Positions 26,130-63,026 of a stretch of 64,000 bases of DNA are shown here, one piece after another; positions within the stretch are counted from its first letter, which is position 1, and every line of letters starts with the position of its first letter. The DNA lies in assembly GCA_028281495.1 (NCBI GenBank), contig JANQJU010000095.1, positions 25,206 through 89,205 on the forward strand. The letters are read 5' to 3'. The notes beneath the pieces are model-generated. The model saw only the letters and a list, made by a program, of their open reading frames with translations. It was not told the DNA's origin and did no database searches. The position numbers were made by a program, and so were the translations under genes. Origin of the DNA: SAR324 cluster bacterium. GTDB lineage: Bacteria > SAR324 > NAC60-12.

Positions 26130-26219
26130 ATCCAGTGCCCACTGCCCACATTGAAAACGAGTGCAGTCATGAGAGGTATTCAACAGGACGGGCCGACCCA
26201 ATTTCTGGTCATTCATCAA
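26127..26219 (-). pseudogene. GNAT toxin (TacT-like) reduced to its first ~31 codons
   Basis: MMNDQKLGRPVLLNTSHDCTRFQCGQWALDQ matches the N-terminal L...HD...F.CG...LD.Y signature of DUF1778-partnered GNAT toxins. Beyond this point the frame is simply the antisense of the SDR remnant. Confidence 0.6.
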
Positions 26220-44417: not shown

Positions 44418-44467
44418 ATGGTGTTGTAGTCATCACAATTCAATCATTGTTTCAAAAGGAGAACGCT

Positions 44468-45043: not shown

Positions 45044-45046
45044 AAT

Positions 45047-47569
45047 ATGCTTGCGTCAATCAACGTTCCGCCGTCTGTTTCCAAAGGGCAGGTAGTCCTC
45101 ATTTCAATTCTATTTTGCGCATCTGGCTTCGTGGGCTTGGTGTACCAAGTGCTGTGGATGAAAGAGTTGGGACTGTTGTTTGGAAACTCTTCTCAAGCGG
45201 CAGCCACGACCTTGGTGGCGTTTTTCTTAGGGTTGGCGGTTGGAGGGTATGTTTGGGGCAAGCGTTCCAAAAACATTCGGCATCCACTTCGAACGTACGC
45301 ACTGTTAGAAGTTGGAGTCGTCTGTAGCGCGCTCCTTTATTATGTTTTGTTGGACACCTATTATCTTCTGTACAGTCCCTTGTTTCAAATCGTTGGCGAT
45401 TATCCAACGGTGTTTGTAACGCTCAAATTTGTACTGGCTGTCGTTATTCTCTTTTTGCCCGCCTTTTTTATGGGGGGGACCTTGCCTCTCATGAGTCAGC
45501 ATTTGGTCCGAAATGCCAACTCTTTGGGAAAAACCACTTCTTTGTTGTATGCCGTCAATACGCTTGGAGGCGCATTGGGGGCATACATGGCAGGATTTCA
45601 TTTGCCTCCGTTGATGGGGTTTGATCGAACCTATGTGGTCGCCTTAATCTTGACCGGGGGCGTTGCACTGCTTGCCTGGGTTTTGAGCTATTTTTCGGCA
45701 CCGCCTGCTATTCATCAATCCCCCTCACCTCCTGAAAAACCACCCACCTTGCCACTGATGTCATGGAACTCGATACGAGCTTTGGCGTTTCTTTCAGGTT
45801 TTGTGGCATTGAGCGTCGAAATTTTGTGGACTCGTATGTTTTCGCAAGTGCTTCAGAATTCGGTGTATACGTTCTCCACGGTACTTGTCATTTTTTTGGT
45901 ATCTCTTGCCTTGGGAGCTTGGCTGGCTAGTTTTTTAGCCCGATATGATTTCAACCCCTTGGCCACGATATCGATCCTCCTCCTTTTATCCGCATTGCTC
46001 ATCGGATTAACTCCCTTTTTATTTTCGTGGACAACCAATGGATTGCAGTATTTGGGAGGTAAAAAAGATTGGATCGACTACATGGTAGAAATCTTCCGAC
46101 ACGGCGGTACCGTCATGTTGGTGCCCGGGATTTGCCTGGGCAGCATTTTTCCGTATTTGCTCAAAATGAGCGAGGCTCACCATCAAGCCGCTGGTGAAAC
46201 GGTAGGCCATTTGATAGCAATCAATACCTTGGGAGCAATTGTCGGTTCGGTCAGTGCAGGATTCGTCTTCATGCCGTTGTGGGGTTTATGGAACAGCATT
46301 CGATTGATGGCTGTCATTTATCTGCTCGTGGTCCTTTTTCTTGTACCCCCTAAACCGAGTCGGACCAAACTGTTCCAATGGGCAGCTGCTTTCGGCTTGT
46401 TGCTTTTGATTACGGTTTTTGAGCCATCTTCCGTACCCCTGATTCGAGTGGATCCTGTCAAAAAGAAAGAAGTTCTTTATGAGTATTGGGAAGGGAGCAA
46501 CGGGACGGTCGCCGTCGTAAAACGGAAAAATTCTCTCAAGATCAAAGTCAATAACTATTACAGCTTAGGAGGAACCGGAGCAAAAAAATGGGAAGCCAAG
46601 CAGTCCCATCTGCCTCTCTTAATTCATCCGAATCCAAAATCCGTGTTCTATCTAGGTATGGGAACTGGAATCACCGCAGGGGCCGCATTGAGTCACCCTG
46701 TCGAACGAGTCGTCGTGAGTGAACTAATCCCTGAAGTGGTTGAGGCCGCCGAGAAATACTTTCAGCCTCATCTCAATGGCTTGTTTACCGATCAACGTGC
46801 TTCCATCGTTACCGAAGACGGCCGGAATTATCTATTGGGCACGTCCGAACAATTTGATGTGATCATCGCGGATTTGTTTATTCCGTGGAGAGCGGGTGTG
46901 GGGAGTTTGTATACACAGGAACACTTTGTCACGATCCACCAACATTTGAAAAAAGGGGGGCTGTTTGCCCAATGGTTGCCCTTGTATCAATTGACAGAAG
47001 CCGACTTTGGAGGAATTGCTCGTACCATGCTCGAAGCATTTCCTCAGGTGACGATGTGGCGGGGGGATTTTCTTTCCAGAAAGCCAATTGTAGTCTTGAT
47101 TGGTCATCAAAATGATCAACCCTTTCAACCTTATGATCTTTCACAACGCATGCAACAAGTGGGGGTGGAATTCAAACAAACCCCTGTGGGTCATTTTCCA
47201 TTTTTTTCGCATTATGCGGGGAACCTTTCTAGTGTCAAACATCTCTTTAATTCTTATCTTATCAATACTGATGATTTGCCATTGATTGAATATCAAGCTC
47301 CTATCAGCCATCGTCAGCAAAAAGCCCGTCAATCCCAATGGTTTGTCCAAGAAAAATGGACTCGCTTTGTCGAAACGGTATTGACCCATCATCCTCCTGC
47401 AAACGATCCTTATTTAAAAAACCTCCCGACACAACAATATCGGTTTCCTCACGCAGGACTCTTCCTTCACCAAGCTAAGGTGGCTCAATATCAAGGAAAT
47501 TCAAAGCAATTCACCACGTTGCTCTACCAGTACCACCAGCAGGTGAAGACGCATGAGACCTTGCCTTAA
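45047..47569 (+). CDS. Polytopic membrane domain fused to a spermidine-synthase-like (polyamine aminopropyltransferase fold) domain
   Basis: The first ~440 aa have many TM helices. The C-terminal domain has VFYLGMGTGITAGAAL (SAM-type G-x-G), VVVSELIPEVVEAAEKYF and FDVIIADLF. Confidence 0.75.
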   Translation: MLASINVPPSVSKGQVVLISILFCASGFVGLVYQVLWMKELGLLFGNSSQAAATTLVAFFLGLAVGGYVWGKRSKNIRHPLRTYALLEVGVVCSALLYYVLLDTYYLLYSPLFQIVGDYPTVFVTLKFVLAVVILFLPAFFMGGTLPLMSQHLVRNANSLGKTTSLLYAVNTLGGALGAYMAGFHLPPLMGFDRTYVVALILTGGVALLAWVLSYFSAPPAIHQSPSPPEKPPTLPLMSWNSIRALAFLSGFVALSVEILWTRMFSQVLQNSVYTFSTVLVIFLVSLALGAWLASFLARYDFNPLATISILLLLSALLIGLTPFLFSWTTNGLQYLGGKKDWIDYMVEIFRHGGTVMLVPGICLGSIFPYLLKMSEAHHQAAGETVGHLIAINTLGAIVGSVSAGFVFMPLWGLWNSIRLMAVIYLLVVLFLVPPKPSRTKLFQWAAAFGLLLLITVFEPSSVPLIRVDPVKKKEVLYEYWEGSNGTVAVVKRKNSLKIKVNNYYSLGGTGAKKWEAKQSHLPLLIHPNPKSVFYLGMGTGITAGAALSHPVERVVVSELIPEVVEAAEKYFQPHLNGLFTDQRASIVTEDGRNYLLGTSEQFDVIIADLFIPWRAGVGSLYTQEHFVTIHQHLKKGGLFAQWLPLYQLTEADFGGIARTMLEAFPQVTMWRGDFLSRKPIVVLIGHQNDQPFQPYDLSQRMQQVGVEFKQTPVGHFPFFSHYAGNLSSVKHLFNSYLINTDDLPLIEYQAPISHRQQKARQSQWFVQEKWTRFVETVLTHHPPANDPYLKNLPTQQYRFPHAGLFLHQAKVAQYQGNSKQFTTLLYQYHQQVKTHETLP

Positions 47570-47712
47570 CAACTCAAGCATTTCTCAAAAGTTTGATCCC
47601 GTTGACGATGACTGTCATCATGGATCCCTTTATACGCGACTATAAAATGAAGATTTTTGTGGTTGCAGTAGGGGGTGTCTAGGAGAGACCAGACTCATGA
47701 TGTTTTAGGGGA

Positions 47713-48615
47713 ATGACGGCGTGGCTTATGCAGATTGACAACATCCATGATGCCATTGTGTTGATCGAAAATCACCTGACAGAACCACTGGTGCTGCAAG
47801 AGGTGGCAAGTCATGCTCGGATGTCGTTTCGGCATTTTCAACGACAATTCAAAGCAATGACGGGGGATTCGGTTAAAGAATATTTACGAGCACGACGGTT
47901 AAGCTCCGCAGCAACGGATCTGGCAACAAGCCAAAAACGTATTTTAGAGATCGCCCTCGATTATCAATTTGAATCCCAAGAAGCCTTCACACGCGCATTT
48001 TCTCAACGATTTTTTCAAACACCGGGAAAATTCCGAAACAGCAGTTTCAGGAATATCCAACTCAATAAAATTCCGTTGACTTATGAAGCGCTCGAACACT
48101 TTCAGCGAGGTCTGACACTATCCCCGACAATCACCACCCTACCTTCGATGAAAGTGGTGGGGTTGAGAGCAACATTACAATCGTTTGGATCACGAACGGA
48201 TCTATCCAATTTACAAAAAGTGGATCGCGTCTATCGAGAATTTGACATCCGAAAGTTTGAAATCCAGAAAGTGATCCTTCCCCAAGGAATGCCCTGGGAT
48301 TATTCGATCAATGCGGTGTGGTATTCCCCAAAGCAACCAAGCGATGAGATGATGTATTTGGTCTGCTTGCAGGTCGAAGACTTTCACAAAATTCCCCAGG
48401 GTATGGAGACCCTCATTCTCCCTCAAGCACGTTATGCTTACTTTCGTCACCACGGACATTTAGATCACAATCTGTACACCACCAATTATGCGATCACGTC
48501 TTGGTTTCCCAAATCGGTCTATCGCCTCGGAAATGCTCCCATCCTAATGTACCACTACCATTTTGCTTCGGGGACAAACGACATCTATTCTGAACATTAT
48601 TATCCTGTTCAGTAA
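47713..48615 (+). CDS. AraC-family regulator with GyrI-like effector-binding domain
   Basis: The N-terminal HTH pair is LQEVASHARMSFRHFQRQFKAMTGDSVKEYLRARRL...ILEIALDYQFESQEAFTRAF. The C-terminal ~170 aa resembles a GyrI/SOUL-like small-molecule-binding domain. Confidence 0.8.
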   Translation: MTAWLMQIDNIHDAIVLIENHLTEPLVLQEVASHARMSFRHFQRQFKAMTGDSVKEYLRARRLSSAATDLATSQKRILEIALDYQFESQEAFTRAFSQRFFQTPGKFRNSSFRNIQLNKIPLTYEALEHFQRGLTLSPTITTLPSMKVVGLRATLQSFGSRTDLSNLQKVDRVYREFDIRKFEIQKVILPQGMPWDYSINAVWYSPKQPSDEMMYLVCLQVEDFHKIPQGMETLILPQARYAYFRHHGHLDHNLYTTNYAITSWFPKSVYRLGNAPILMYHYHFASGTNDIYSEHYYPVQ

Positions 48616-48731
48616 TCTCGAAAACCACTCCCACTCGCCTCGTCTTCATTTTGGCATAAAATATCAAAACATCTGATTCGTTCATTGATAGATTACGGCT
48701 ATCGACGCTCCGACTCGCGTGTTTCAGGGGA

Positions 48732-48769
48732 ATCCTGTGAGGATCATTTTATCCTGTGAGGATCATTTT
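48732..48769. repeat. Perfect tandem duplication of 19-nt ATCCTGTGAGGATCATTTT (each unit a 5-bp hairpin ATCCT-GTG-AGGAT plus T-run)
   Basis: Read directly at 48732-48750 and 48751-48769, between the AraC-family gene and the serine hydrolase gene. Confidence 0.9.
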
Positions 48770-48866
48770 TTGTTGTACGAGGAGGCGGTTATTAAAGACC
48801 TGTGGAATGTGGGGTTCTGTTTGTGTGTTTCGTGAATCTTTTATCTATGGACTCGAAAGGGAGAAA

Positions 48867-50402
48867 ATGATGGCAATCCAATTGATCGATCGGTGCGCGT
48901 GCTGGCGTTTCCTAACCAAAGGGTTGATGTTGGTGAGTTTGTTACTGCCTGGAGTGGGGTGGGCGCAATCCTCGGACGCTTGTGTGGATGTTTCAGGCAT
49001 TTGGAACAGTGTGGAATATATGAAAGGGGAGTGTGAGCACGGAACCCAGTACCGTCGTTTGGAAATCCAACAAACCGGATGTGCCATCCAGTGGGTGGGA
49101 ACCGAGGTCACCGGTGAAGTGAACGGTTCTCAGATTACTTGGAATGACCCTTTGCCAGACCGTCATGGTCGAGGATGGTATACCTTGGAGGAGGGAACAC
49201 TCACCGTGTCCGGGTCACAAGTTGAAGGGACTTTGGTGTGGGAGTGGTCGGATGACATCAAGTACTGTATGGGCGAAACGCAGTTCCAAGCCACCCGTCA
49301 CGTTCCCGAGAGTAGAGCAATCTCGGCCTCGGAAACTGTCACAGGTCCCTGGGAGCGTGACTATTGGCCCACCGCAGGTTGGCGAACCAATACCTTGGAA
49401 GCCCAAGGGGTGGACCCCAAGCCTATTGCTAAAATCGTAGAGCAAATACCCACTCAATTACCGTTTTTGTCGAGTTTGCTGATTGTGCGTCAAGGAGAAT
49501 TAGTTTGGGAACAATATTTTCCAGGCAAGTATCAACCTGCACCTCAACCCGAACAGTTGCAGCATGTGTATTCGGTGACTAAAAGTGTGACCAGTGCGCT
49601 GGTGGGTCTCGCGATGCAGCGTCAACAACTCCACGATGTGGACCAAACCTTAGAAGACCTATTGCCTCAGGTTTACTTGGAGTCTGGACTGGAAGCGGAC
49701 AAACGGAAAATCCGCTTGCAAGACTTGTTGCAAATGACTTCTGGTTTCAAATGGATAGAAAACTTCACCGACCCCACCGGAGTCTCCACAAAATGGGCCT
49801 TTGCTAACGATTGGACCCAAGCAGCGTTAGCTCTACCTTTAGAGAACAACCCAGGGTCCCGCTTCAACTATAACTCGGCCAATTCCCATCTGCTGGGAGT
49901 GATTGTGAGCGAAGCGACGGGAATGCCGTTGGTGGCCTTTGCCAAAGAAGCGCTGTTTGCCCCGTTAGGCATCACAAATTATTATTGGTCACGAGAAGGG
50001 CAAACCTCATTTTTGACAGTTTCCAATAATAAAGGACAGTATGACCATGGCGGCGGTGGCCTGGAACTCACGGCCCGGGATTTGGCAAAGTTCGGTTATT
50101 TGTATCTGAATCAAGGCGTATGGGAGGGACGACAGCTTCTTGCCAAAGACTGGGTAGACGAGTCGTTCCACAACACGGTGAAGACCGGAGACCCCTCGAC
50201 CTATGGCTATCAATGGTGGACCTATGATGGTTGGAAATCTCCCTTTTATTATGGAGTGGGCTTGGGAGGACAATTGTTGTTTGTAGTACCAAAACAAGAT
50301 TTGGTGATCGTGATGACATCCCACCGTCCGGCGACTCCCAGTCCGGTGATAGACCTCACCTATTACTACAATTTTCAAGCGTTGATGGATGCTTTGCCGT
50401 GA
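48867..50402 (+). CDS. Secreted serine hydrolase of the beta-lactamase/PBP fold with extra N-terminal domain
   Basis: Canonical YSVTKSVTSALVG (SxxK), YNSANSHLLG (YxN) and HGGGG. I prefer the ATG at 48867 (after GGGAGAA; hydrophobic signal-like LMLVSLLLPGVGWAQS) to the tracked 48756, which starts inside the tandem repeat. Confidence 0.8.
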   Translation: MMAIQLIDRCACWRFLTKGLMLVSLLLPGVGWAQSSDACVDVSGIWNSVEYMKGECEHGTQYRRLEIQQTGCAIQWVGTEVTGEVNGSQITWNDPLPDRHGRGWYTLEEGTLTVSGSQVEGTLVWEWSDDIKYCMGETQFQATRHVPESRAISASETVTGPWERDYWPTAGWRTNTLEAQGVDPKPIAKIVEQIPTQLPFLSSLLIVRQGELVWEQYFPGKYQPAPQPEQLQHVYSVTKSVTSALVGLAMQRQQLHDVDQTLEDLLPQVYLESGLEADKRKIRLQDLLQMTSGFKWIENFTDPTGVSTKWAFANDWTQAALALPLENNPGSRFNYNSANSHLLGVIVSEATGMPLVAFAKEALFAPLGITNYYWSREGQTSFLTVSNNKGQYDHGGGGLELTARDLAKFGYLYLNQGVWEGRQLLAKDWVDESFHNTVKTGDPSTYGYQWWTYDGWKSPFYYGVGLGGQLLFVVPKQDLVIVMTSHRPATPSPVIDLTYYYNFQALMDALP

Positions 50403-50633
50403 AGGAAGGAGGGTTGAATTGGGAAGAACTTCGACCGTTAATAGATAAACACCATGATAGACTGACACAGAACACGAAGATTCAAACGATTAAACCAAGT
50501 CGATTGCTCTGACGAAACCATCGATTTTCGATGCTTGCACTCAAAAGACTTAGGTTTATGAATATACGTGCTCGATAACTGTGTCAGTCATCAGTGGTTT
50601 GTGGCTAAGGATTTCCCACTAGAAACGGGAAAA

Positions 50634-51560
50634 CTAATTAATTGTACAATGGTTTGGAATCAAATTGCACATGTATTCGACTTCAGACTGACTTAAAACA
50701 CTGTTAAACAGATACACTTCATCGACTTCTCCTGTCAGCCAGTTATCCTCGTAAGCATCTCCGCCAATTTGGATTTGTTTGGCTATTGTCAAATTATCAG
50801 ACAGTACGACTTCTTTGACCAAATTAGCATTGATGTACATGCGGATTGTTTTGCTATTGTGGTCATAACTTCCCACCACATGTTGCCACACATTCTCTGT
50901 CAATTTACCAGAAGAATCAGAACTACAATGCCAGGAATCCGTAGTTCCATCATCGGCTCCTAGAGCGAGATGATAGTTGGTATCGCAGCCTGAGTTTTGG
51001 CTTGAGCTAGACCCTCGGAAGTAGAAATGTGATCGTGCGCTCGTGGAACCAACCCCCACAATTCCTTGCCTTAAGTGTTGATTGAGCGTGTTGTTTCCCG
51101 GCTTCACCCATACAGATACGGTGAGGGAACTATTGCCCCAATTGTTTGAAATGTTGCTACCTTGTAAATTGCTGTTCCCGGAAAACTGAGCTGCATTGCC
51201 TAGAGCTCCTTGTGGGGTGGTCGTTAAAGTCCCGATGTTCAAGTGGTTTCCGTTCGGTGATTGGTCATCCGTTGGGGATGGTCCATCAAAGGAATAGTGG
51301 GCAAACAAGCCTCCAGGCATTGTAGGTTGTGAGAGATCTAAAACTGGCAAATCTCGGCCATCCCAAAATTGGATTTTACCTCCATCCCGAGTTACTAAAT
51401 CCGTTACACCGTCGTTATTTAGATCATCAAACCGAAATCCATTGATGTTGGTACAATACTGATTGGTGAGACAATCCAGTATATCTATAGGTTCCGGTTC
51501 AGGAGTCGTGGCAGAAGCGAATGTGGGTGCCGCTAATAGAATCAATAACCATTTTTTCAT
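50634..51560 (-). CDS. Secreted LamG/concanavalin-A-like lectin domain protein with N-terminal FG-GAP/VCBS-like Ca-binding motif
   Basis: Signal peptide MKKWLLILLAAPTFASA. DLNNDGVTDLV is FG-GAP-like. LTVSVWVKP...WQHVVGSYD...IRMYINANLV...GEVDEVYLFNSVLSQSEV is the Laminin_G_3 pattern. Confidence 0.7.
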   Translation of the reverse strand: MKKWLLILLAAPTFASATTPEPEPIDILDCLTNQYCTNINGFRFDDLNNDGVTDLVTRDGGKIQFWDGRDLPVLDLSQPTMPGGLFAHYSFDGPSPTDDQSPNGNHLNIGTLTTTPQGALGNAAQFSGNSNLQGSNISNNWGNSSLTVSVWVKPGNNTLNQHLRQGIVGVGSTSARSHFYFRGSSSSQNSGCDTNYHLALGADDGTTDSWHCSSDSSGKLTENVWQHVVGSYDHNSKTIRMYINANLVKEVVLSDNLTIAKQIQIGGDAYEDNWLTGEVDEVYLFNSVLSQSEVEYMCNLIPNHCTIN

Positions 51561-51762
51561 AGTTCCTCTATGTGATAGTATTGGAAAATAATTTAATGTT
51601 TAGTGGAATTTTCATTGTCCTTTATTGGACAACTGTAAAGACAACAACTTTTTTTGATAGGTTTAAAAAAAAAAGAGAAGTTATTCAATTTTATGGTTTT
51701 GTTAACGTTAGTATTGATGGATAACTTGTCGGAAGGGAGGGGCATGGATTCTCTAGAAGAGC

Positions 51763-52308
51763 TTACTGACTGCGGGGGCCAGCGCCGTATTCTTTTATTT
51801 TCAGATAAATTTTATACAAGGTGGTGTTAACAGCATAAATCGCAAAGCCCCAGCAAAGCCCTCCTAACACAATGAGAAGAGCAGTCCTCACAAATCCTGA
51901 AAAGGCAATCAGGGTCATTTGCCTATACAAAAAAATTGCCACAAATTGAATCATCTCGGTAGTTGAGTCAAATTCTACACTCCTATTGAGCACATTGTAC
52001 CGAGAGAACTGATCGTAAAGTTCTACGATGAGCCTTATCATCACAACACAGGTACTCGCTAGCATTCCAGTTAGGAGCATTTTTTCCCAAGATGGTTTTC
52101 CTTTCAAGCATCGATTCAATTGAACCGCACCCAGCCAACCGGTGATTAACGCGAATGGTACAATGCTCAGCAAATCATCAAGGTACATCGTGATGTAAGT
52201 CCAATCGAGCAAGAGAATCTCCATTTTGGGAATAAGCACATGAGGCACCCAAATGGATAGGATTATCAAGGCCTCGATCAATCCGACAAGTATTGGGGGT
52301 CTTTTCAT
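51763..52308 (-). CDS. Hypothetical polytopic membrane protein
   Basis: 181 aa with ~5 hydrophobic helices and no recognisable motif. AT-rich. Confidence 0.45.
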   Translation of the reverse strand: MKRPPILVGLIEALIILSIWVPHVLIPKMEILLLDWTYITMYLDDLLSIVPFALITGWLGAVQLNRCLKGKPSWEKMLLTGMLASTCVVMIRLIVELYDQFSRYNVLNRSVEFDSTTEMIQFVAIFLYRQMTLIAFSGFVRTALLIVLGGLCWGFAIYAVNTTLYKIYLKIKEYGAGPRSQ

Positions 52309-52362
52309 AGGGATTCGCTTTCAATTGAATTGGTAAAATTCAACTCTCATTTATGTGACCAA

Positions 52363-52404
52363 AATAGGAAGATTTTCTCGCAGAATAGGAAGATTTTCTC
52401 TCAG
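52363..52404. repeat. Tandem 21-nt duplication AATAGGAAGATTTTCTC(G/T)CAG
   Basis: Copies at 52363-52383 and 52384-52404 differ at one base. Located in an AT-rich intergenic region. Confidence 0.9.
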
Positions 52405-52772
52405 ATTAAGAGAGCCTTAGAAGATTGTAGTGAGCAGAGCCATTACCTAAAGACTGTTATCTAAATCAGGGGTAGGACAACCTGAAGTAGTTTTGCTGGT
52501 ATTGGAAACAATCATTGATAGATTTTTTTCTATTCCTGATAGATTAAATTCTATAAATAATGGATCTTTTAGCGAACACTGAAGCTATTTTGAAAAATAA
52601 CCTGTAGTCTGAATTTTATTTTTTTGTTTTAAAATTAGTTACTTATGCGTGGTTTTAATTACTTTTTAAAGAAAAGTGTTCATGTGGCACAAATCTAGTA
52701 GCTAGAAAGGCAACAAGGCACAAAACTTTGAATGCCTTGTCCGTATGAATCCCCTCAAACTTAGGATCGAAG

Positions 52773-53195
52773 ATGATCAATTTTATCGAAGTTAGCAAAG
52801 CAATATCCCATGCGTTACGCCACGAACCATGGCTTTATGAATTGGAATTGGATCAAGAAGGCTGGGTTCCTATGGAACAGATGTTATCTGCATTACACTC
52901 TGAAAAACCGGATTGGGAGTCCTTACAAGAGAGCGATCTTCATACAATGATGGCGCGATCGGAAAAGCAACGGTATGAGATCCAAGATGGCAAAATTCGG
53001 GCGCTTTATGGTCATTCAGTACCAGGGAAGGTCACCAAAACTTCCACAGCGCCCCCCTTGGATTTCGACTCCAGTATTGGGGGTTCGATGCCTCCCGCCC
53101 CTACCAATCTAAAAGGTTTAAATAGAATATCTAACGATAAATATGCAGCTATGGGAAAAGAATTCAAAAGGTTTGAGAAGCTACAGTCAATGTAA
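52773..53195 (+). pseudogene. kptA: RNA 2'-phosphotransferase (KptA/Tpt1), only the N-terminal ~95 codons; the rest of the ORF is read-through into unrelated sequence
   Basis: ISKAISHALRHEPWLYELELDQEGWVPMEQMLSAL...KQRYEIQDGKIRALYGHSV...APP parallels the E. coli KptA N-lobe as I recall it. The expected ..LYHGT.. and the NAD-binding lobe are absent. Similarity ends at nt 53057. Confidence 0.7.
53058..53106 (+). pseudogene. 3' half of a tRNA-Arg(UCG) with encoded CCA (anticodon arm to 3' end), no 5' half
   Basis: TTGGA-TTTCGAC-TCCAG (anticodon UCG with U33 and A37), variable TATT, T-arm GGGGG-TTCGATG-CCTCC, acceptor strand CGCCCCT, then A and CCA. The upstream sequence is kptA coding, with no D-arm or 5' acceptor strand. 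Confidence 0.7.
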
Positions 53196-53348
53196 AAACT
53201 GATAATTTCTATAACCTTTTTAAAAGAATGAAGTCCATTAAACGAGTCTATGGGATGGATTCGATATGTCCACCCGGCGCATTGTTTCTGAAAATTGAAA
53301 TTCTGTGTATCGACCTGGACTTTAGCCAGTGCCTGTCAAGCGCTGGAT

Positions 53349-53421
53349 TCACGCGGCCGCAGGTTCAATTCCTGCCACCTTTCGAGGTGTAGCTCAGTTG
53401 GTTAGAGCACGTGTCTATTGG
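53349..53421 (+). ncRNA. Circularly permuted tRNA-like element (order 39-72 then 1-38) with acceptor helix closed as CACCT-TTCG-AGGTG
   Basis: Read in order: TCACG, CGGCC, GCAGG-TTCAATT-CCTGC, CACCTTT, CGAGGTG, TA, GCTC-AGTTGGTTA-GAGC, A, CGTGT, CTATTGG. All canonical tertiary positions are present (U8, A14, G15:C48, G18G19, T54T55C56, G53:C61). Whether it is transcribed or functional is unknown. Confidence 0.5.
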
Positions 53422-53500
53422 GATAGCTCTGCGAGAGCAACGGACTGAAAATCCGTGAATGCAGGTGGGCCGCAACAGCGGACCATTCCTGCTCCACAAT
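53417..53500 (+). ncRNA. Aberrant tRNA-Phe(GAA)-like element: short D-loop without GG, and a T-loop carrying an 18-nt hairpin insertion
   Basis: Acceptor ATTGGGA / TCC(A)CAAT with one bulge, then TA and D-arm GCTC-TGCGA-GAGC. The anticodon arm is ACGGA-CTGAAAA-TCCGT. The T stem GCAGG/CCTGC encloses T-GGGCCGC-AACA-GCGGACC-ATT. No CCA is encoded. Confidence 0.45.
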
Positions 53501-53776
53501 GCAAAAAGGGAGAGCTGAATATTCGGTGGAGGTGTTTTGAAATAGAGACGAGTTTTGTTTCGAAACCATCATCCACACAGAGTTGATGCTTTGCTCGTAT
53601 GAGGATACCGCTGACTGAATGCTCGGTTAGAGACTGGGCTGGTTTCGATTTTTCCTAATTCTCGAAAAACGATTCCTGTCTAGTTTGCGATTCGTCCAAT
53701 CGGTAAGCTCAATCATTCGACCGCATTGATTGTGTTAAGAATATTCAGTGATCTTGACAGAAAGGAGGTTAAATTC

Positions 53777-54931
53777 ATGTTCAAAATTTTGTTTATATGG
53801 ATATGTCGACTGTTGATGTTTGAACGGATTCTTGTGCAAGAAAATCAACGTGTACTGGTGTTTCGAGATGGAACGTTCCTTAAAATTCTATCGCCAGGCA
53901 CCTATTGGTTTTTTAAGGCACTTCATGAATTGACCTTTGAAAATCACGATATCACGCAACCTCAATTTTGTAGTGAATGGACCGATGTATTGTTGAAAAA
54001 TCACAAAGATGAAGTAGCGGATTGTTTGACCTGGGTTGATATTCTGGATCATCAGGTCGCGCTCGTTTCATTGAACGGAAAGGCTTATGAACTGCTTCCT
54101 TTAGGAGCACGTCGGGCTTATTGGACTGTGATGCATGAGCTTGATTTTGAGGTGATTGACACGTCGCAGAATCTGCAGGTGCCTCCTGAAAAAGTACCTA
54201 CACTGATGCGACTGAGGTCCAATCATTTCAGCTGGCACATTGTTACTGAAAACAGTGTAGGGTTGCTGTTTGTCAATGGTCAACTGACTCAACAATTGGG
54301 GCCTGGAGGTTATGCGTTTTGGAAAACTGGGTTAGAGCTACGGTTCGAAATTCTAGATTTGCGGGTGCAGCAAGTTGAAGTGGTTGGACAAGAAATTTTG
54401 ACCAAAGATCGTGTCAGCTTACGAGTGAATTTGACCGCGCATTACCAAGTGATGGATCCGGTTAAAGCCAAAACTCAGGTGGTTGGTTATTCCGATATGC
54501 TTTACAAATACTTACAGTTCGGTTTGCGTGAAGCGATTGGTGGCCGAAATTTGGACGAACTCTTGTTGGATAAAAACCAACTCAACGAAGTCGTTTTCTC
54601 CACAGCTAAAAACCAAATTGAAGCGTGTGGCGTGGAGTTAAAAGCGGTAGGTATCAAGGACATCATTTTGCCTGGCGAAATCCGGGACATCATGAACCAA
54701 GTGGTTGAAGCACAAAAGCGTGCCGAAGCCAACTTGATCAAAAGGCGTGAAGAAACCGCTGCTACCCGATCCTTGCTCAACACAGCTAAGTTGATGCAGG
54801 ACAATCCCACGTTGCTGCGCCTCAAGGAGCTAGAAGCGCTAGAAAAGGTAACGGATAAAATCGACAACCTGCATGTCTATAATGGGGTCGAGGGATTGAT
54901 GAATAACTTGGTCCCTTTGGCTAAATCGTAA
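53777..54931 (+). CDS. SPFH/band-7 (stomatin/prohibitin-like) domain protein with an N-terminal SPFH-like duplication
   Basis: ATG at 53777 after AAAGGAGG is preferred to the tracked 53726. The N-terminal TM helix is followed by VQENQRVLVFRDGTF..LSPGTYWFF and again by VTENSVGLLFVNGQL..LGPGGYAFWK. The canonical SPFH core is ILTKDRVSLRVNLTAHYQVMDP...REAIGGRNLDELL, with a coiled-coil tail. Confidence 0.75.
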   Translation: MFKILFIWICRLLMFERILVQENQRVLVFRDGTFLKILSPGTYWFFKALHELTFENHDITQPQFCSEWTDVLLKNHKDEVADCLTWVDILDHQVALVSLNGKAYELLPLGARRAYWTVMHELDFEVIDTSQNLQVPPEKVPTLMRLRSNHFSWHIVTENSVGLLFVNGQLTQQLGPGGYAFWKTGLELRFEILDLRVQQVEVVGQEILTKDRVSLRVNLTAHYQVMDPVKAKTQVVGYSDMLYKYLQFGLREAIGGRNLDELLLDKNQLNEVVFSTAKNQIEACGVELKAVGIKDIILPGEIRDIMNQVVEAQKRAEANLIKRREETAATRSLLNTAKLMQDNPTLLRLKELEALEKVTDKIDNLHVYNGVEGLMNNLVPLAKS

Positions 54932-54945
54932 CTTAACAAGAGCGT

Positions 54946-54973
54946 GGGTTTTCACATCAATTTGTGAAAATCC
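54946..54973. terminator. 11-bp stem hairpin GGGTTTTCACA-TCAATT-TGTGAAAATCC between convergent genes
   Basis: Lies 15 nt after the SPFH stop and ~120 nt after the TIR gene stop on the other strand. One G:T pair, and no strong T-run follows, so terminator function is uncertain. Confidence 0.35.
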
Positions 54974-55094
54974 ATGTTCTTACCCTTGAAATCGACTTTA
55001 CCCTCGAAATGAAATGCGGTCGCCCTGGAAGACGTTATCAATTCACTTGCGGTAGTATGTGAAATTAGAAAGGAGTGGCAATTTTTGTTAAGCA

Positions 55095-56492
55095 TTATTT
55101 ATTCTTTACCCTTAGAGATTTAAGCAAACGCTCCTTTGCATTTTCGTACTGGCTATCATTTCTCCAATTTGAAAAATCTGCGACATGTTGCTGTTTAAAA
55201 AGCATCTTCACCCAGGCTAATTGCGATCTTAGCACCGAATCATCCAATCGAATCGGTAATATATTTGATTTTCCTTGAGCAGCCCAATGGTATTCCTTTG
55301 AGACCCATTCGCTTTTTATAGAATGCCTTGAAAGTATGACAAGAAACACCTTACTACGTTGAATCTCTGCCAGAATCGTTTCTTTTAGATAATCTCCTCC
55401 GTAAAGATCATTGTACCAACAGTTCACACCACCGAGAGTCAGGTCAGCATATAGCCTATTGGTAAACTCTCTATCTTCTGAAGTATGGCTCATAAAACAA
55501 AAATCCCTTTCATGTATCTGAGCTTCATCTAATAGGATTGCATCCCTTAAATTAGCCTCACCAAATTCTGTTCGACGGACTTTTACCTTGCGTAAATCTG
55601 TCTTTGTCAACCTCGCTCCTGAAAGATTCGCTTGTCTTAGATCTGCTCCCTGAAGATTCGCGTGTTCCAAAATTGCGTTCTCGAAATCTGCGTGTAGGAG
55701 ACTTGAATTTCTGAAGTCTCCACCGCTCAAATCGACTTCCTTCAAAACGACTCTGTTCATGGTCGAATTTTGACATCTGGGAGGCTCTTCAAAATCTGCT
55801 TTTAAAAAGTTTGCCTCACTTAGATTGGCTTCTTCGAAATCTGTATTCATCAGGCGAGCACTTTCAAAGTTGGCTTCACCCAGGTACGCATATCTGAAAT
55901 CTGTATTCATCAGGCGAGCACTTTTAAAGTTTGCTTCACTCAGGTCCGCATATCTGAAATCTGTATTCATCAGGCGAGCACTTTCAAAGTTGGCTTTTTG
56001 AAGTTTCGCCTCACGAAAGTCTGCTCTATTGAGATTTGCTTCATAAAACCTAGAATCGTCCAAAATCGCTTTGACAAGGTCGGCTTCTTGAAGCATCGCC
56101 CCACTGAGATTAGTATTATTCAAATCTGTTCTAAAGAGAGTTGCATTACTGAGATCCGTATTACTCAATTCCGCATGACTTAAATTAGCTCCCTCCAGTT
56201 CAACACCCTGCAAGTTAGCATCACTAATATTTGCTTCACTGAGATTAGAGTCTTTCAAATCGGCACCACGAAAGTCAGCCCCTTGAAGATTAGCACCGCT
56301 GAGATTTGCTTCGTTTAATTTCCAATTGCTAAAATCCTTGTTTCTTAAATCTACCTTCTTGAGGTCAGCTATTTCTCCTTCTTCGCCTTCTGACTCAACC
56401 CATTCTTCATGTTTTTCGAGAATGAGTTCCAACTCTTCTGCAGAAATTTTTCGTAAATCAGCCACTGAATCTCTCAACTTGAGTTTTTCCAA
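55095..56492 (-). CDS. Pentapeptide-repeat protein with C-terminal TIR domain
   Basis: ~250 aa of A(D/N)LxG-type pentapeptide repeats (ANLSGANLQGADFRGADLKDSNLSEANISDANLQG...), then FMSHTSEDREFTNRLYADLTLGGVNCWYNDL...VFLVILSRHSIKSEWVSKEYHWA. This fits the TIR pattern, including the conserved Glu after S..W. Confidence 0.8.
   Translation of the reverse strand: MEKLKLRDSVADLRKISAEELELILEKHEEWVESEGEEGEIADLKKVDLRNKDFSNWKLNEANLSGANLQGADFRGADLKDSNLSEANISDANLQGVELEGANLSHAELSNTDLSNATLFRTDLNNTNLSGAMLQEADLVKAILDDSRFYEANLNRADFREAKLQKANFESARLMNTDFRYADLSEANFKSARLMNTDFRYAYLGEANFESARLMNTDFEEANLSEANFLKADFEEPPRCQNSTMNRVVLKEVDLSGGDFRNSSLLHADFENAILEHANLQGADLRQANLSGARLTKTDLRKVKVRRTEFGEANLRDAILLDEAQIHERDFCFMSHTSEDREFTNRLYADLTLGGVNCWYNDLYGGDYLKETILAEIQRSKVFLVILSRHSIKSEWVSKEYHWAAQGKSNILPIRLDDSVLRSQLAWVKMLFKQQHVADFSNWRNDSQYENAKERLLKSLRVKNK
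55838..55996 (-). repeat. Intragenic 60-bp tandem repeat, ~2.6 near-identical copies, encoding ESARLMNTDFRYA(D/Y)L(S/G)EANF(K/E)
   Basis: The sequence lines 55861, 55921 and 55981 are almost identical in register: ...AAATCTGTATTCATCAGGCGAGCACTTT(C/T)AAAGTT(G/T)GCTTCAC... Confidence 0.9.
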
Positions 56493-56586
56493 ACTACTAA
56501 GTAATAACGTAAGAATTGGGGATAACTCAAGCCGATCCGTAAATATTCAGAGTAACTATGAGAATGTCATTACATTAGAGTGAGTT

Positions 56587-59211
56587 ATGAATAAAGTTTA
56601 CGACCAGTATTGGGGGAAAGCAAAGTCTACCAAAACCGTTAGTCACCACCTATTTGCTTACCACAGCCTGGATGTGGTCGCAGTGGGAACCCGTTGGTGG
56701 GAAACGAGTGTTGCTTTGCGTAACGGGATGATTCGAGCGATGGGTGTCGATGAACCTCAAGCCAAGGCCTGGATGCAATTCTTTTTAGGGCTGCATGATT
56801 TAGGAAAGCTCGATTTTCGTTTCCAGCAGAAGGCTCCTCAGGTTGCAAAAAAACTGGGGCACTCGGTCGAGAACTCCAGAAAGCGTTCAAATTATGATCA
56901 CGGAGAATGGGGGTTCACTTGGTACCAACGCGAGCGGGAATCACGCTATGGTTTGCCCGAACGAAAGAGGGCTTATTGGATTCAATGGGGACGAGCCGTT
57001 ACCGGACATCATGGACGCTTTTATCAATGCGTTGACAAGAGCACGGTTGAAGGTCTCATGATCAACGAAGCCTCGCGAGATGTATGGAATAAAGATCAGT
57101 TGGCTCGCACTGAATGGTGTGAGGATTTGTATGAATGGTTTCTCGTTCCAGCAGGCCTCAGCAAAACATCGCTTTCCCCTCCCTGTCCCCACCAATTCGC
57201 TGGGTTTTGCTGCGTCTGTGATTGGCTTGGTTCCAATGAAACACCAGGTTTCTTTGAGTATGATGACCAACCCTATCCTGACTTGATGCAATACTTTCAG
57301 TCACGCTTTCCGATTGCTCAGCACAGTCTTCAAACAAGCGGTTTGTTCGTTCCCGCAGTGAACAAAGGGGGAGTTTCCTTAGTTCTTGAACAAGGCCAAT
57401 CTCCCCGAAAAGTGCAAAGTTTAGTGGAACAACTACCAGTGCAACCTGGATTGACCATCATCGAAGCTTCCACAGGTTCTGGCAAAACAGAGACGGCTCT
57501 GGGCTATGCAAGTATTCTCCTAGCAAACTCGCTTGCAGACAGTGTGATGATTGCCTTACCCACTCAAGCCACCGCCAACACTATGTTGGCACGAATGGAA
57601 AAGATCGCGCCCCGCTTGTTTCCAGTTCAAGTGAATTCTCCCCACTCACTCAGCAATCTGCTATTGGCACATGGAAAATCTAACTTCGAGCCGCGTTTTA
57701 TTGAACTCAAAAAGACGATGTATCGCAATACCGCTCAAGGGAAGGAGGAGGCTCTTACGCAATGTTCTCAATGGTTAGCTGAAAGCCGGAAGCGTGTGTT
57801 TTTAGGTCAAATTGGTGTCGGGACTATCGATCAGGTACTCATGTCGGTTTTACCAATTCGTCATCAATTTGTTCGTGGTTTCGGATTGCACAAAAGTGTG
57901 CTGATTGTGGATGAAGTTCATGCTTATGATTTTTATATGGTGGGGCTGTTGGAAGAAGTCTTAAAAAAGCAACGGGAAGCGGGCGGCAGTGCCATAATGC
58001 TATCGGCAACATTACCAGCGATACAAAAATCGGTTCTCTTAAAAGCTTGGAGCAGTAAGGAAGATGCATCGGCGAATTCGCCATATCCTCTGATTACTCA
58101 CGTCAATCAGGAAGGTAGGTTTCAAACATTTAAAATAGCAGACAAAGCTCAGGAAATAGCAGACAAAGTTCGCCAATCGCCATCGAATGGTATCAAACTG
58201 GAACGGTTGGTAACCTCCGATTGGCGATTGTCCCAACAACAAATGGATCGAGTACTTGAGGCCGCAACTTCCGGTGCTCATGTGGCAATTGTGCTGAATT
58301 TAGTTGATGAAGCTCAAAGACTTTTCAAACAACTGACACAACGAGTGAACGGACGGCCCATTGCTCTGGATTTATTTCATGCACGTTTTCGTTTCAAAGA
58401 TCGCCAAACTCGTGAACAGGCAGTGATCGAACATTACCAACCCCGTTCTATCCTCAAACCGGGGCGTATTCTGGTTGCTACTCAGGTCGTTGAACAAAGC
58501 CTCGATCTCGATTTCGATTGGCTCATCACTCATTTGTGCCCCGTTGATTTACTGTTTCAACGTATCGGGCGTTTGCATCGACACCAAACCACGAAACGTC
58601 CTCAGGGGTTTGAAAATCCGTTGTGTACGGTCATTTTAAATCAGGGAAACAATTATGGCCTCCACCAATTGATTTATGGAAATGCCTCTGTGTTATGGCG
58701 TACCAAGGAATTATTGAAATCGCATGATTGTTTAAAGTTCCCCTACATCTACCGACCTTGGATTGAGCAAGTGTATCAAGAGGATGCTTGGTCCGATGAA
58801 CCTGCTTCCATTCAAAAGCAAAAGGCCGAATTTTTAGTGGAACAGAAAACTCGAAACCAAACAGCAAAGCAACTGAGCCAAGAATGGTTTACGCCTTTGA
58901 AAGATAATGATCAAAACGCGGCATTACTGACACGTGATGGAGAAATGGGTCTCAATCTACTCTTGGGCAGAAACGACAATTCTTCATTTCAATTGTTGGA
59001 TGAGGACTGGGATAAGGCTTTTGTCAACGAGCAAATCAACCGCCATACGGTTGCGGTACCTGCCTCTTGGAAACGATTTTTACACGAACCAAAACAGGGA
59101 TTATATCACGTCTCGATGAAGCCCCACCCTGATATCGAATCGGAGTGGGCCAGCGATGAACTCAAGTTACGCTACAGCTCTGAGCGAGGGCTAGAAAGGG
59201 TCAATGGATGA
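56587..59211 (+). CDS. cas3: Type I-E Cas3 HD nuclease / SF2 helicase
   Basis: N-terminal HD domain (HHLFAYHSLDVVAV, GLHDLGKLDFRFQ), helicase motifs STGSGKTE (I) and VDEVHAYD (II). 874 aa, directly upstream of and overlapping cse1. Confidence 0.9.
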   Translation: MNKVYDQYWGKAKSTKTVSHHLFAYHSLDVVAVGTRWWETSVALRNGMIRAMGVDEPQAKAWMQFFLGLHDLGKLDFRFQQKAPQVAKKLGHSVENSRKRSNYDHGEWGFTWYQRERESRYGLPERKRAYWIQWGRAVTGHHGRFYQCVDKSTVEGLMINEASRDVWNKDQLARTEWCEDLYEWFLVPAGLSKTSLSPPCPHQFAGFCCVCDWLGSNETPGFFEYDDQPYPDLMQYFQSRFPIAQHSLQTSGLFVPAVNKGGVSLVLEQGQSPRKVQSLVEQLPVQPGLTIIEASTGSGKTETALGYASILLANSLADSVMIALPTQATANTMLARMEKIAPRLFPVQVNSPHSLSNLLLAHGKSNFEPRFIELKKTMYRNTAQGKEEALTQCSQWLAESRKRVFLGQIGVGTIDQVLMSVLPIRHQFVRGFGLHKSVLIVDEVHAYDFYMVGLLEEVLKKQREAGGSAIMLSATLPAIQKSVLLKAWSSKEDASANSPYPLITHVNQEGRFQTFKIADKAQEIADKVRQSPSNGIKLERLVTSDWRLSQQQMDRVLEAATSGAHVAIVLNLVDEAQRLFKQLTQRVNGRPIALDLFHARFRFKDRQTREQAVIEHYQPRSILKPGRILVATQVVEQSLDLDFDWLITHLCPVDLLFQRIGRLHRHQTTKRPQGFENPLCTVILNQGNNYGLHQLIYGNASVLWRTKELLKSHDCLKFPYIYRPWIEQVYQEDAWSDEPASIQKQKAEFLVEQKTRNQTAKQLSQEWFTPLKDNDQNAALLTRDGEMGLNLLLGRNDNSSFQLLDEDWDKAFVNEQINRHTVAVPASWKRFLHEPKQGLYHVSMKPHPDIESEWASDELKLRYSSERGLERVNG

Positions 59212-60674
59212 ATTTACTGACAGATGCTTGGATTCCAGTTCATGCACAAGGGCAACACACTCATCTCCATCTGGAAACCATTCTCACTGATGAAACATCG
59301 TGGGAGATCGACTTGCCTAGAGATGATTTGGAGTTGGCAGCCATTCAGCTTCTTAGCAGCCTAGTGCAATGCCTGTTGCCTCCTGAAGATCTGGACGATT
59401 GGGTAGAACGATTGAAAGCTCCGATTCCTACAGAAACCTACCGGCAAGCAATCAAACCTTTTCAGGAATGGTTTGATCTGAGCCATTCCCAATACCCGTT
59501 TATGCAATGCTTGGCCACCACTGCGAAAAACATTACTCCCATTCAAAAGCTCTTTGTCGGATTGCCAGAAGGCAACAATCACATTTTTTTTAACCGACCA
59601 GGTGAAGTCCAACTTGCTTGTTCCTCCTGTGTCGCCATCGCTCTCTTCAACCAAGCCTCCAATGCACCTAGTTTCGGAGGGGGGTTTAAGGATGGATTAA
59701 GAGGAGTGCCGATTTCTACAATGATTCGAGGCTACAACCTTCGTGAAACCTTGTGGTTGAATGTTCTATCTCTTCAGAAATTGCCGCTACCTTATGACCC
59801 AGAACAACCGGATGAACCGGTGTGGGTGAGTCCTATTGAACAAAATTCAAAATTCTCGGCGGCTTCTATTGGGTGGGTTCGAGGGCTGTTTTGGCAGCCG
59901 CATCACCTCCGGTTGAATTCTCCTCAGCAAGGAGCATGTGACGTGTGTCAAACTCAAAATACGGACGTGTTTTCTGGTTTCCTGAAGGAAAGATTCAAAT
60001 TTAGTTTGGAGGGCACCTGGAAGCATCCCTACAGCCCCAGTGAGTGGAAAAAGTCGAACGACAAAGAAACTAACTATCTTTCTTTTCGGAAAAATATCCC
60101 AGCCTGGACTCACTTGGATCGTTTTCTGGTTCCCCATCAGAAAACGAACGAAAAATTCGGATCAACCCCAGCTTTGGTCGTGGATCAATTCAAAGAGGGG
60201 CTTGCAGGTGAACGACATCTAAGCCTGATTGTTGGAGGATATCGGAATAAGCAAGCCTCGATCCTGCAACGTCGTCACACCCTTTTTGATCTCTCTGAAG
60301 GATGGATAGATAAAGGAGAATGGGGCCTCGTGGAGAAATTCATCAGCATCATTTTAGGCATCAAGAAATTGCTCACGAACTACCTTTATGGCGTGGGTAA
60401 AAAAGTGGGTTCCCAAGGTTTATCCGAAACGGCAGAAAGGCAATTTTACTTCCGCACAGAACCCATGATCCACGAGATTCTTCGTTCGTTTCAGAGGGAT
60501 TCATGGAGCGAGACTTCCACCCAATTTTTCCAACAATTGGAAATACTTGTGAATGAACTTTATGACGCCACTGTAAAACCCTTCGAGCGGAATGAAAAAC
60601 ATTTGAAAATTATTGTCGTGACCAAGGCTCGGTTCCAGCTTGCCTTAAAACGACTTCGAAAGGAGGCACTTTGA
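59208..60674 (+). CDS. cas8e: Cascade large subunit Cse1/Cas8e (CasA)
   Basis: MNLLTDAWIPV..., LPRDDLELAA, YPFMQ and CVAIALFNQASNAPSFGGGFKDGLRG closely parallel E. coli CasA as I recall it (MNLLIDNWIPV, LPRDDMELAA, CTAIALFNQANQAPGFGGGFKSGLRG). Confidence 0.9.
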   Translation: MNLLTDAWIPVHAQGQHTHLHLETILTDETSWEIDLPRDDLELAAIQLLSSLVQCLLPPEDLDDWVERLKAPIPTETYRQAIKPFQEWFDLSHSQYPFMQCLATTAKNITPIQKLFVGLPEGNNHIFFNRPGEVQLACSSCVAIALFNQASNAPSFGGGFKDGLRGVPISTMIRGYNLRETLWLNVLSLQKLPLPYDPEQPDEPVWVSPIEQNSKFSAASIGWVRGLFWQPHHLRLNSPQQGACDVCQTQNTDVFSGFLKERFKFSLEGTWKHPYSPSEWKKSNDKETNYLSFRKNIPAWTHLDRFLVPHQKTNEKFGSTPALVVDQFKEGLAGERHLSLIVGGYRNKQASILQRRHTLFDLSEGWIDKGEWGLVEKFISIILGIKKLLTNYLYGVGKKVGSQGLSETAERQFYFRTEPMIHEILRSFQRDSWSETSTQFFQQLEILVNELYDATVKPFERNEKHLKIIVVTKARFQLALKRLRKEAL

Positions 60675-61222
60675 GCACCCTATCTTCAACTACAATGATC
60701 GAACAAAACAAAGCGGCTGAATCCCAATATAATGAACTCTGGCGACGTTTTCATGAGTTCAACCCCAAAGTAAGAGCCGAAATCAGGCGGGTACGCACCT
60801 ACGAAGATTTAGGAAACGTTCCTTCATTTTATCATCTATTTTTTGGACTCAAATTTCCCTATAGCGATCAATGGCATCGTATCGTCTACTTCTTCCCCTA
60901 CCTTGACGAAACGAGTGCCGTTGATGGGCTGTACCGCCCTTTAGGTCGTCAATTTCTGGATCATAAGATCAGCGAATCTCGAATCGTTCAGCTAGTGCGG
61001 GCAGATCATCCCCAAGATATGGATTATCTACGACGTTTGATTCAACACGCGCAACCCGTTGCCAATTGGCGGAACTTTGGTTCGCTCCTTTACTACTGGG
61101 GCAAATCCAATGCACGAAAGATCCTTCAGGACTACTGCTTAGCAGCTGTCGCGCTCGACGATCAGTCCCGTGAATACCAAAACCAGAAATCCCCATCCCA
61201 GCAAGGAGAATCTCATGACTGA
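60671..61222 (+). CDS. cse2: Cascade small subunit Cse2/Cas11e (CasB)
   Basis: 183 aa. IRRVRTYEDLGNVPSFYHL and RIVQLVRADHPQDMDYLRRLIQHAQPVANW parallel E. coli CasB (IRRVSEPDELRDIPAFYRL, RIFQLIRADRTADMVQLRRLLTHAEPVLDW). Confidence 0.85.
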   Translation: MSTLSSTTMIEQNKAAESQYNELWRRFHEFNPKVRAEIRRVRTYEDLGNVPSFYHLFFGLKFPYSDQWHRIVYFFPYLDETSAVDGLYRPLGRQFLDHKISESRIVQLVRADHPQDMDYLRRLIQHAQPVANWRNFGSLLYYWGKSNARKILQDYCLAAVALDDQSREYQNQKSPSQQGESHD

Positions 61223-62330: not shown

Positions 62331-62338
62331 GAGGTCCA

Positions 62339-63016: not shown

Positions 63017-63026
63017 AAAAGGAGGA

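Follow-up and report, generated by a model that had tools for sequence, protein, structure and literature searches.

We analysed a 64,000-nt stretch of the genome of a SAR324 cluster bacterium (assembly GCA_028281495.1, contig JANQJU010000095.1, positions 25,206 to 89,205; hereafter the window), in which a kptA gene breaks off exactly where a fragment of a tRNA-Arg(UCG) gene begins, upstream of an SPFH/Band-7 gene. Several described systems resemble parts of this locus. The RNA 2'-phosphotransferase Tpt1/KptA is composed of an N-terminal RNA-binding lobe and a C-terminal NAD+-binding lobe, and the NAD+ lobe is indispensable to the known Tpt1 chemistry. At the attachment (att) sites of integrase islands and prophages, unrelated, AT-richer DNA is abutted by a tRNA 3' fragment that starts at or within the anticodon stem-loop, or in the T loop, and extends as far as the 3' end. 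SPFH/Band-7 modules with a cognate tRNA-like RNA have reportedly been proposed as a scaffold for RNA repair. YrlA, a bacterial Y RNA (Rfam RF02553), has a permuted tRNA-like layout with a T arm, a closed acceptor stem and a D arm. Long tRNA arrays (L-arrays) are horizontally spread, have HNH and rtcB genes as neighbours and show frequent insertions and deletions as well as pseudogenes (Santamaria-Gomez et al. 2021, PMC8421152).

The locus shares some features with these systems and lacks others. Its kptA open reading frame (ORF) retains the N-terminal RNA-binding lobe of Tpt1/KptA but not the C-terminal NAD+ lobe (profile positions 89-177), in whose place stand 45 unrelated residues. Compared with a canonical tRNA gene, the tRNA fragment has the anticodon arm, the T arm with its TTCRA loop and the 3' acceptor strand with CCA but neither the 5' acceptor strand nor the D arm, and it is predicted to be inert because these parts are absent. 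As in an att site, a tRNA 3' fragment abuts unrelated, AT-richer DNA; unlike at such sites, the window holds no repeat partner, intact tRNA, integrase or mobile-element genes. The SPFH module shares with its described counterparts an intact slipin gene, a same-strand tRNA-like RNA and a conserved leader. It differs in that Pfam scans of window ORFs of at least 110 aa detected no RtcB, RlaP or HNH, and its tRNA-like element carries private insertions and scores just under tRNA thresholds. SPFH loci related to that of the window resemble L-arrays (PMC8421152), with up to 23 co-oriented CCA-encoding tRNAs and with HNH and RtcB neighbours, whereas the window, with a single tRNA fragment and two tRNA-like modules, lacks any complete tRNA; it would belong with the L-arrays as a remnant only.

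With moderate confidence we regard the half tRNA as the last remnant of an accessory tRNA array, joined by a deletion to the kptA stump. The genomic context, i.e. the SPFH cassette and the arrays, explains the junction better than the att scar proposed in an earlier note on the sequence of this stretch. The junction itself is ordinary gene decay and the surrounding cassette is more interesting: taken alone, this pseudogene scar changes little, and its value is that of a pointer to the SPFH cassette.

The kptA stump and the tRNA-Arg(UCG) fragment

The junction comprises the following elements:

52773..53057, + strand: kptA', codons 1-95 of the RNA 2'-phosphotransferase Tpt1/KptA, N-terminal RNA-binding lobe
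52773..53195, + strand: 140-aa ORF as now read, kptA' plus a tail from the tRNA fragment and the AT-rich spacer
53058..53106, + strand: 3' fragment of a tRNA-Arg(UCG) gene, positions 27-76 (from the sequence, Infernal and a rule-based scan)
53107..53242, + strand: AT-rich spacer that related loci lack, holding the stop codon of the read-through ORF

The break is sharp: the kptA codons stop at nt 53057, the end of ORF residue 95, and the tRNA fragment starts directly at 53058. The ORF (140 aa) consists of 95 uninterrupted kptA codons, with AGGA placed 7 nt 5' of the ATG, and of a 45-aa read-through tail. The Pfam domain PTS_2-RNA (PF01885) covers ORF residues 5-89 only (profile positions 4-88 of 177), and chain residues 4-96 of C. 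thermocellum Tpt1 (PDB 6E3A, 182 aa) align to ORF residues 2-95 (E 1e-29). Within this N-terminal lobe the LRH and KIRALYGHS motifs are kept; the Arg-His pair (R16-H17) and the Arg of the (I/V)RAxxGHS motif (R76) are present. Full-length KptA homologues measure 178-190 aa, and the best of them reach about 65% identity across the first 94-95 residues, with none matching past this point. The C-terminal lobe (profile positions about 89-177) has no match in the whole 64 kb, where tblastn with seven full-length KptAs matches only 52776-53057. These results agree with the earlier note, which had placed the end of the kptA similarity at nt 53057 and deduced the removal of the NAD-binding lobe. Since this lobe is lost, the 140-aa ORF is predicted to be incapable of 2'-phosphate transfer. 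The tail is without homologues, and in clustering the ORF remains a singleton. Alignments reaching into the tail are gapped noise. Other short KptA entries in the databases are independently broken genes with unrelated ends. On every reading save co-option, the ORF is a gene fragment or pseudogene, not an enzyme.

One such exception would be a short functional variant, in which a KptA reduced to its N lobe, or the tRNA 3' piece in its mRNA, is kept for a role in an SPFH ribonucleoprotein, for instance as a binder of RNA ends that are damaged or 2'-phosphorylated, or as a decoy ending in CCA. The cut does fall at the boundary between the two lobes, and the open 95 codons with their intact motifs, the AGGA before the ATG and the 65% identity to full-length enzymes would suit a retained protein. 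This architecture and this tail are however present in no other sequence, the other short KptAs are broken differently, and the tail is nothing but translated tRNA and AT-rich spacer. The missing lobe is the one required by the known chemistry, and to our knowledge position 27 is not a break point of any anticodon nuclease or split tRNA. We consider a functional short variant very unlikely. Co-option might also have involved both pieces at once, the KptA N lobe and the tRNA piece being co-transcribed with the RNA and the SPFH gene and recruited into a ribonucleoprotein of SPFH and tRNA-like RNA, as a sensor or decoy of 2'-phosphorylated or broken tRNA ends. To this we give only a very slight chance: the comparative signals, without exception, indicate a truncation that occurred once, rather than co-option.

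The tRNA fragment (53058-53106, 49 nt) contains an anticodon arm (TTGGA/TTTCGAC/TCCAG, anticodon UCG), a 4-nt variable loop (TATT), a T arm (GGGGG/TTCGATG/CCTCC), the 3' acceptor strand (CGCCCCT), the discriminator A and an encoded CCA. When the analysed stretch was started at 53058, Infernal reported a tRNA truncated at its 5' end (22.7 bits, E 0.004, model positions 26-71). A rule-based scan for tRNA halves (5-bp anticodon arm with U33, variable loop of 4-5 nt, 5-bp T arm, TTCRA loop, CCA) found no site but this one in the window, both strands included; 200 dinucleotide-shuffled sequences yielded 0 sites with the CCA required, and shuffles gave 0.035 sites each without it. The tRNA 3' half with CCA described in the earlier note is therefore well founded. 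That note had named two observations that would speak against its reading, namely homologues sharing the C-terminal sequence of the ORF and an unsupported tRNA-like fold. Neither was found: no homologue shares the tail, which is private to this ORF, and the fold of a genuine tRNA fragment is backed by Infernal. No complete tRNA is detected anywhere in the window by ARAGORN, or by Rfam at its gathering score, and the fragment gives no full-length Rfam tRNA match even at E up to 10. Nor does the window contain an acceptor strand and D arm that could supply the missing 5' half. No sigma70-like site was seen on the + strand of the spacer 53107-53242, and a promoter/terminator scan of 52300-53800 gave nothing usable on this strand.

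A Logan contig of SRR20820735, which may share source reads with the present assembly, is identical to window positions 42773-55865 (13,093 nt) and spans the junction, which thus recurs in a second assembly. An assembly chimera, in which a metagenome assembler joined two molecules at a short shared sequence, could be invoked because the assembly is of metagenome type and because a C-rich run, GCGCCCCCC, stands at the very end of the left-hand sequence. In view of the identity with the Logan assembly and of coding and RNA features that are coherent on both sides, we find an artefact of this kind hardly credible.

The earlier note had interpreted the junction as an attL/attR scar. A tyrosine-integrase element would have entered a tRNA-Arg(UCG) gene; 53058-53106 would be the attR repeat and the kptA stump DNA of the element, while the intact tRNA and the integrase would lie more than 53 kb leftward or have been lost. 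The extent of the fragment fits: its first base is the first base of the anticodon stem, and a stretch from there to the CCA is said to correspond to the identity blocks of anticodon-loop-type tRNA att sites. The 2.5 kb on the left are AT-rich, as the note had remarked (33-42% GC, against 44-51% in the flanks). The target might moreover itself have been an array tRNA, which makes the mechanism compatible with an array origin. The defining features of such a scar are nevertheless lacking. Allowing up to 3 mismatches, the 49 nt occur only once in the window; neither the 53 kb on the left of the junction nor the 11 kb on its right holds a tRNA, and the window offers no 5' half that would match the fragment. 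Pfam scans of nearly all non-overlapping window ORFs of at least 110 aa found no integrase, phage or conjugation domain, the missing integrase having already been pointed out in the note. Genes left of the junction encode ZnuA and an ABC-3 permease, an MFS-spermidine synthase, AraC, beta-lactamase-like proteins, kinases and glycosidases. An extra event would be needed to bring an attP core up against the interior of kptA. The T-arm/acceptor portion of the 49 nt, searched for by exact matching in genome, metagenome and viral collections, gave 0 matches, leaving the fragment without a parent tRNA in all three. When the region and the 49 nt were compared by BLAST with phages and plasmids, only generic tRNA-arm similarity came back. 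Of the earlier interpretation, the sharp junction, the lost NAD+ lobe and the real tRNA fragment are supported, and the attL/attR scar, which we regard as unlikely, is not. For annotation, the lesson is that a tRNA 3' half alone is not evidence for an integrase att site.

A conserved structured RNA preceding the SPFH/Band-7 gene

The DNA that follows the AT-rich spacer is organized as follows (L010, L011 and L013 designate three related loci described below):

53243..53317, + strand: conserved 5' domain of the RNA that accompanies SPFH; a T-arm-like hairpin followed by CCGGCGC and GUGUAUCGACC
53318..53340, + strand: window-specific inserted hairpin, anticodon-arm-like (7-bp stem, 7-nt loop CUGUCAA); an insertion relative to L010, L011 and L013
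53347..53416, + strand: permuted tRNA-like module of YrlA-like architecture; T arm, acceptor-like stem closed by a loop, D arm
53418..53500, + strand: tRNA-like element; GAA anticodon loop, short acceptor stem, no CCA, 14-nt T-loop insertion
53501..53776, + strand: 3' part of the leader; conserved GCUGAA at 53514-53519, AGGAGG at 53764-53769 ahead of the SPFH ATG
53777..54931, + strand: intact SPFH/Band-7 gene, slipin/PA4582-like, 384 aa (Pfam Band_7, E 3e-30)

The SPFH protein has 7982 homologues, some of them named slipin or PA4582, the best non-self match covering 96% of the length with 54% identity. The three closest homologues (51-54% identity) are encoded at L010, L011 and L013, each with 0.7-1 kb of non-coding DNA upstream. 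This upstream DNA holds the same elements in the same order as the window: the T-arm-like hairpin with CUGGCGC, GUGUACCGAUG, the permuted tRNA-like module, the tRNA-like element and GCUGAA. At the three loci the tRNA-like element is called by ARAGORN (Phe-GAA or Ile-AAU); in the window, the Rfam tRNA match at 53418-53500 scores 28.7 bits for a gathering score of 29. Aligned with the three upstream regions, window positions 53236-53560 show 66% mean column identity and two private insertions. The consensus fold of the four sequences displays compensatory changes in 14 of its 32 base pairs, including the T arm and the closing stem of the permuted module. A profile of the 5' domain built from the three loci only has a single match in the window (53246-53313, E 7e-8), and a broad-family profile gave no match reaching the window. 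The 5' domain lies at positions 6498-6573 of L010, 6458-6535 of L011 and 6440-6518 of L013, and at 5384-5455 of L035, a more distant locus that is considered below.

The permuted module 53347-53416 shares with YrlA its T arm, closed acceptor stem and D arm layout, and is confined to the subgroup formed by the window, L010, L011 and L013. A permissive Rfam search matched 53333-53427 to YrlA with 37.5 bits (E 3e-6), well below the gathering score of 69. The likeness is partial: the Ro60-binding stem is not conserved and the outer stem has non-canonical pairs. The Pfam scans revealed no rsr (TROVE) gene in the window.

From these comparisons of sequence and predicted fold, the tRNA-like locus at 53243-53776 appears to be a conserved structured RNA partner preceding the SPFH/Band-7 gene. 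The unit of RNA and SPFH gene looks intact in the window, and a very widespread, uncharacterised SPFH/slipin gene would thereby acquire an RNA partner. Dense short direct and inverted repeats were seen just 5' of a promoter-like TTGACA of the SPFH leader in L011 (6250-6400, for example CTAAAGTGA) and in L013 (5990-6100, for example ACACGAAA); they may be operator sites. A possible synteny between the 841-aa MFS gene of L010 and the 840-aa MFS-spermidine synthase of the window (45047-47569) was dismissed, the two proteins being unrelated.

tRNA arrays around SPFH loci and the origin of the junction

A genome scan with the SPFH protein of the window returned distant relatives only (36-47% identity) and gave a first hint of tRNA arrays. 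A set of 80 further SPFH loci (L020-L099) was then drawn from metagenomes by protein homology alone, 73 of them with sufficient upstream sequence. A same-strand tRNA or tRNA-like element lies 150-700 nt 5' of the SPFH gene in 61 of the 73 loci. Its anticodon varies (Ile-GAU 14, Met-CAU 9, Phe-GAA 4, also Thr, Ser, Lys and Asn, with several undeterminable), and by a crude test it carries CCA in 29 of the 61 loci. At least 4 additional co-oriented tRNAs are present upstream in 16/73 loci and at least 10 in 10 loci, up to a maximum of 23; CCA is encoded by 215 of the 234 array tRNAs, and Arg(UCG) was found in three of the arrays. Between the array and the proximal tRNA or tRNA-like element sits a conserved RNA motif of about 75 nt (hairpin, CUGGCGC, GUGUACCGAUG). 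Once iterated, the profile of this 5' domain recovers 57-59 SPFH loci, always on the + strand and 350-750 nt upstream of the SPFH gene, and matches nowhere else in 0.8 Mb. The motif has no Rfam family and is a candidate regulatory or processing element. Among 175 neighbouring ORFs, the only recurrent neighbours of SPFH are RtcB (12 members), HNH (8) and RlaP (3).

In loci chosen by protein homology alone, the slipin cassette and its unannotated leader RNA are thus strongly associated with long tRNA arrays, with RNA-repair genes (RtcB, RlaP) and with HNH genes, occasionally also with kptA. The window has the slipin protein, the upstream same-strand tRNA-like element and the 5' leader domain of such cassettes, 53243-54931 being homologous to them throughout. 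RtcB and RlaP are found in only a minority of the other SPFH loci, so the linkage to RNA repair is facultative. We did not find the link between slipin cassettes and tRNA arrays stated in the searchable literature. If it holds, it would join two lines of work between which we likewise found no connection there: the "cryptic" tRNA arrays induced under translational stress and the predicted SPFH-based RNA-repair scaffold. The earlier note had left open whether an RNA-repair-type enzyme next to a tRNA-like locus was a coincidence. A tie between them gains support from the RtcB, HNH and RlaP neighbours of the SPFH family, from the tRNA arrays, and from the single kptA gene found near SPFH among about 90 loci, that of L035.

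L035 shows, on one strand, LysR, a full-length KptA, an array of 13 tRNAs including Arg(UCG), the 5' domain, SPFH, 4 tRNAs, HNH and RlaP. Its order kptA - tRNA - SPFH is the order of the window. The spacing is also informative: where arrays abut the unit (L035, L002), the last tRNA ends 18-47 nt before the 5' domain, and the window fragment, on the same strand, ends 137 nt ahead of it. The junction would thus be a scar of illegitimate recombination, most simply of one deletion in an L035-like arrangement. Such a deletion would have begun between the two lobes of kptA and ended at position 26/27 of the last tRNA in the array, and would have removed the NAD+ lobe of kptA, the intervening DNA and the 5' part of the tRNA. 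It would have left a kptA stump, the CCA-ending 3' two-thirds of a tRNA, and an intact unit of RNA and SPFH gene. The tRNA-Arg(UCG) would on this account be the last member of a co-oriented accessory array and not a housekeeping gene serving as phage attachment site; kptA would be a member of the SPFH cassette.

Several observations weigh against this deletion. A kptA gene accompanies only that one SPFH locus, whose KptA is 39% identical to the stump. The closest relatives of the SPFH unit (L010, L011 and L013) have no array, only the proximal RNA, and the 49 nt show no specific similarity to the Arg(UCG) genes in the arrays found elsewhere. A start exactly at the anticodon stem is luck for a random deletion but design for an integrase site. 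The collections searched hold no close relative, so the ancestral state is not visible: the best non-self identities are 65% for KptA', 54% for SPFH and 57% for the MFS-spermidine synthase, and the named matches belong to Gammaproteobacteria/Pseudomonadota. The lineage is very poorly sampled. Finally, the closest KptA homologues (65%) reside in cassettes of the RHS/polymorphic-toxin type without tRNAs or SPFH, so the kptA of the window may be unrelated to the SPFH cassette.

This last point leads to a reading in which the junction unites two unrelated pieces. An SPFH cassette with the truncated end of an array would have arrived horizontally in or beside a kptA that was resident or derived from a toxin cassette, the rest of kptA being lost in the same or a later event, with no functional link between the two. 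The unit of RNA and SPFH gene does seem to travel by itself as a cassette, judging by neighbours that are different at each locus, and the RHS/immunity-type surroundings of the closest KptA homologues point in the same direction. Long tRNA arrays moreover spread by horizontal transfer with HNH endonucleases, and SegB of T4, a homing endonuclease beside a tRNA array, prefers to cut tRNA genes (PMC8421152). Against an arrival of this kind, the C-lobe of kptA is found neither across the cassette nor in the rest of the window, so at least two events are needed. Those KptA homologues are preceded by partner genes that share no homology among themselves and of which the window retains nothing, and L035 demonstrates that kptA can occur within such a cassette. 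We consider a union of two unrelated pieces doubtful and retain a single deletion next to an array as the preferred explanation.

Related cassettes and other features of the window

The closest KptA homologues (L015, L017, L018 and L019) are located downstream of RHS/LysM toxin-like genes, each behind a different gene of 136-150 aa. In Pseudomonas sp. CR3202 the pair formed by this gene and KptA is duplicated in tandem. Such an arrangement suggests that KptA may act in cassettes of toxin-immunity type. KptA is also known from phages (97 records, mostly jumbo phages); no tRNAs and no repair genes were present in the two phage neighbourhoods inspected.

A slipin cassette was also observed in E. 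coli, where slipin, an RlaP-like nucleotidyltransferase and a zeta-toxin-family gene adjoin yjbD in 1625 of 5426 complete genomes (L102, CP061233.1 604811-619926). Upstream of this slipin are a sigma54-like TGGCAC-N5-TCGCA and a T-arm-like hairpin, and the region yields neither an ARAGORN call nor a match to the 5' domain profile.

In the window itself, the AT-rich spacer 5' of the kptA stump contains two copies of a 21-bp tandem repeat, AATAGGAAGATTTTCTCGCAG (52363-52405); besides these, repeats around the junction are chance pairs only. A membrane-protein gene precedes this spacer (51763-52308). On the other side of the junction, the interval 55095-63773 holds a type I-E CRISPR-Cas operon (cas3, cse1, cse2, cas7, cas5, cas6e) and, immediately next to it on the - strand, a pentapeptide-repeat protein whose C terminus carries a TIR domain; this places the SPFH cassette at the edge of a defence region. 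Further left, a short-chain dehydrogenase is split into two ORFs, 25468-25818 and 25830-26261 (adh_short profile positions 1-94 and 128-189), and is probably another pseudogene.

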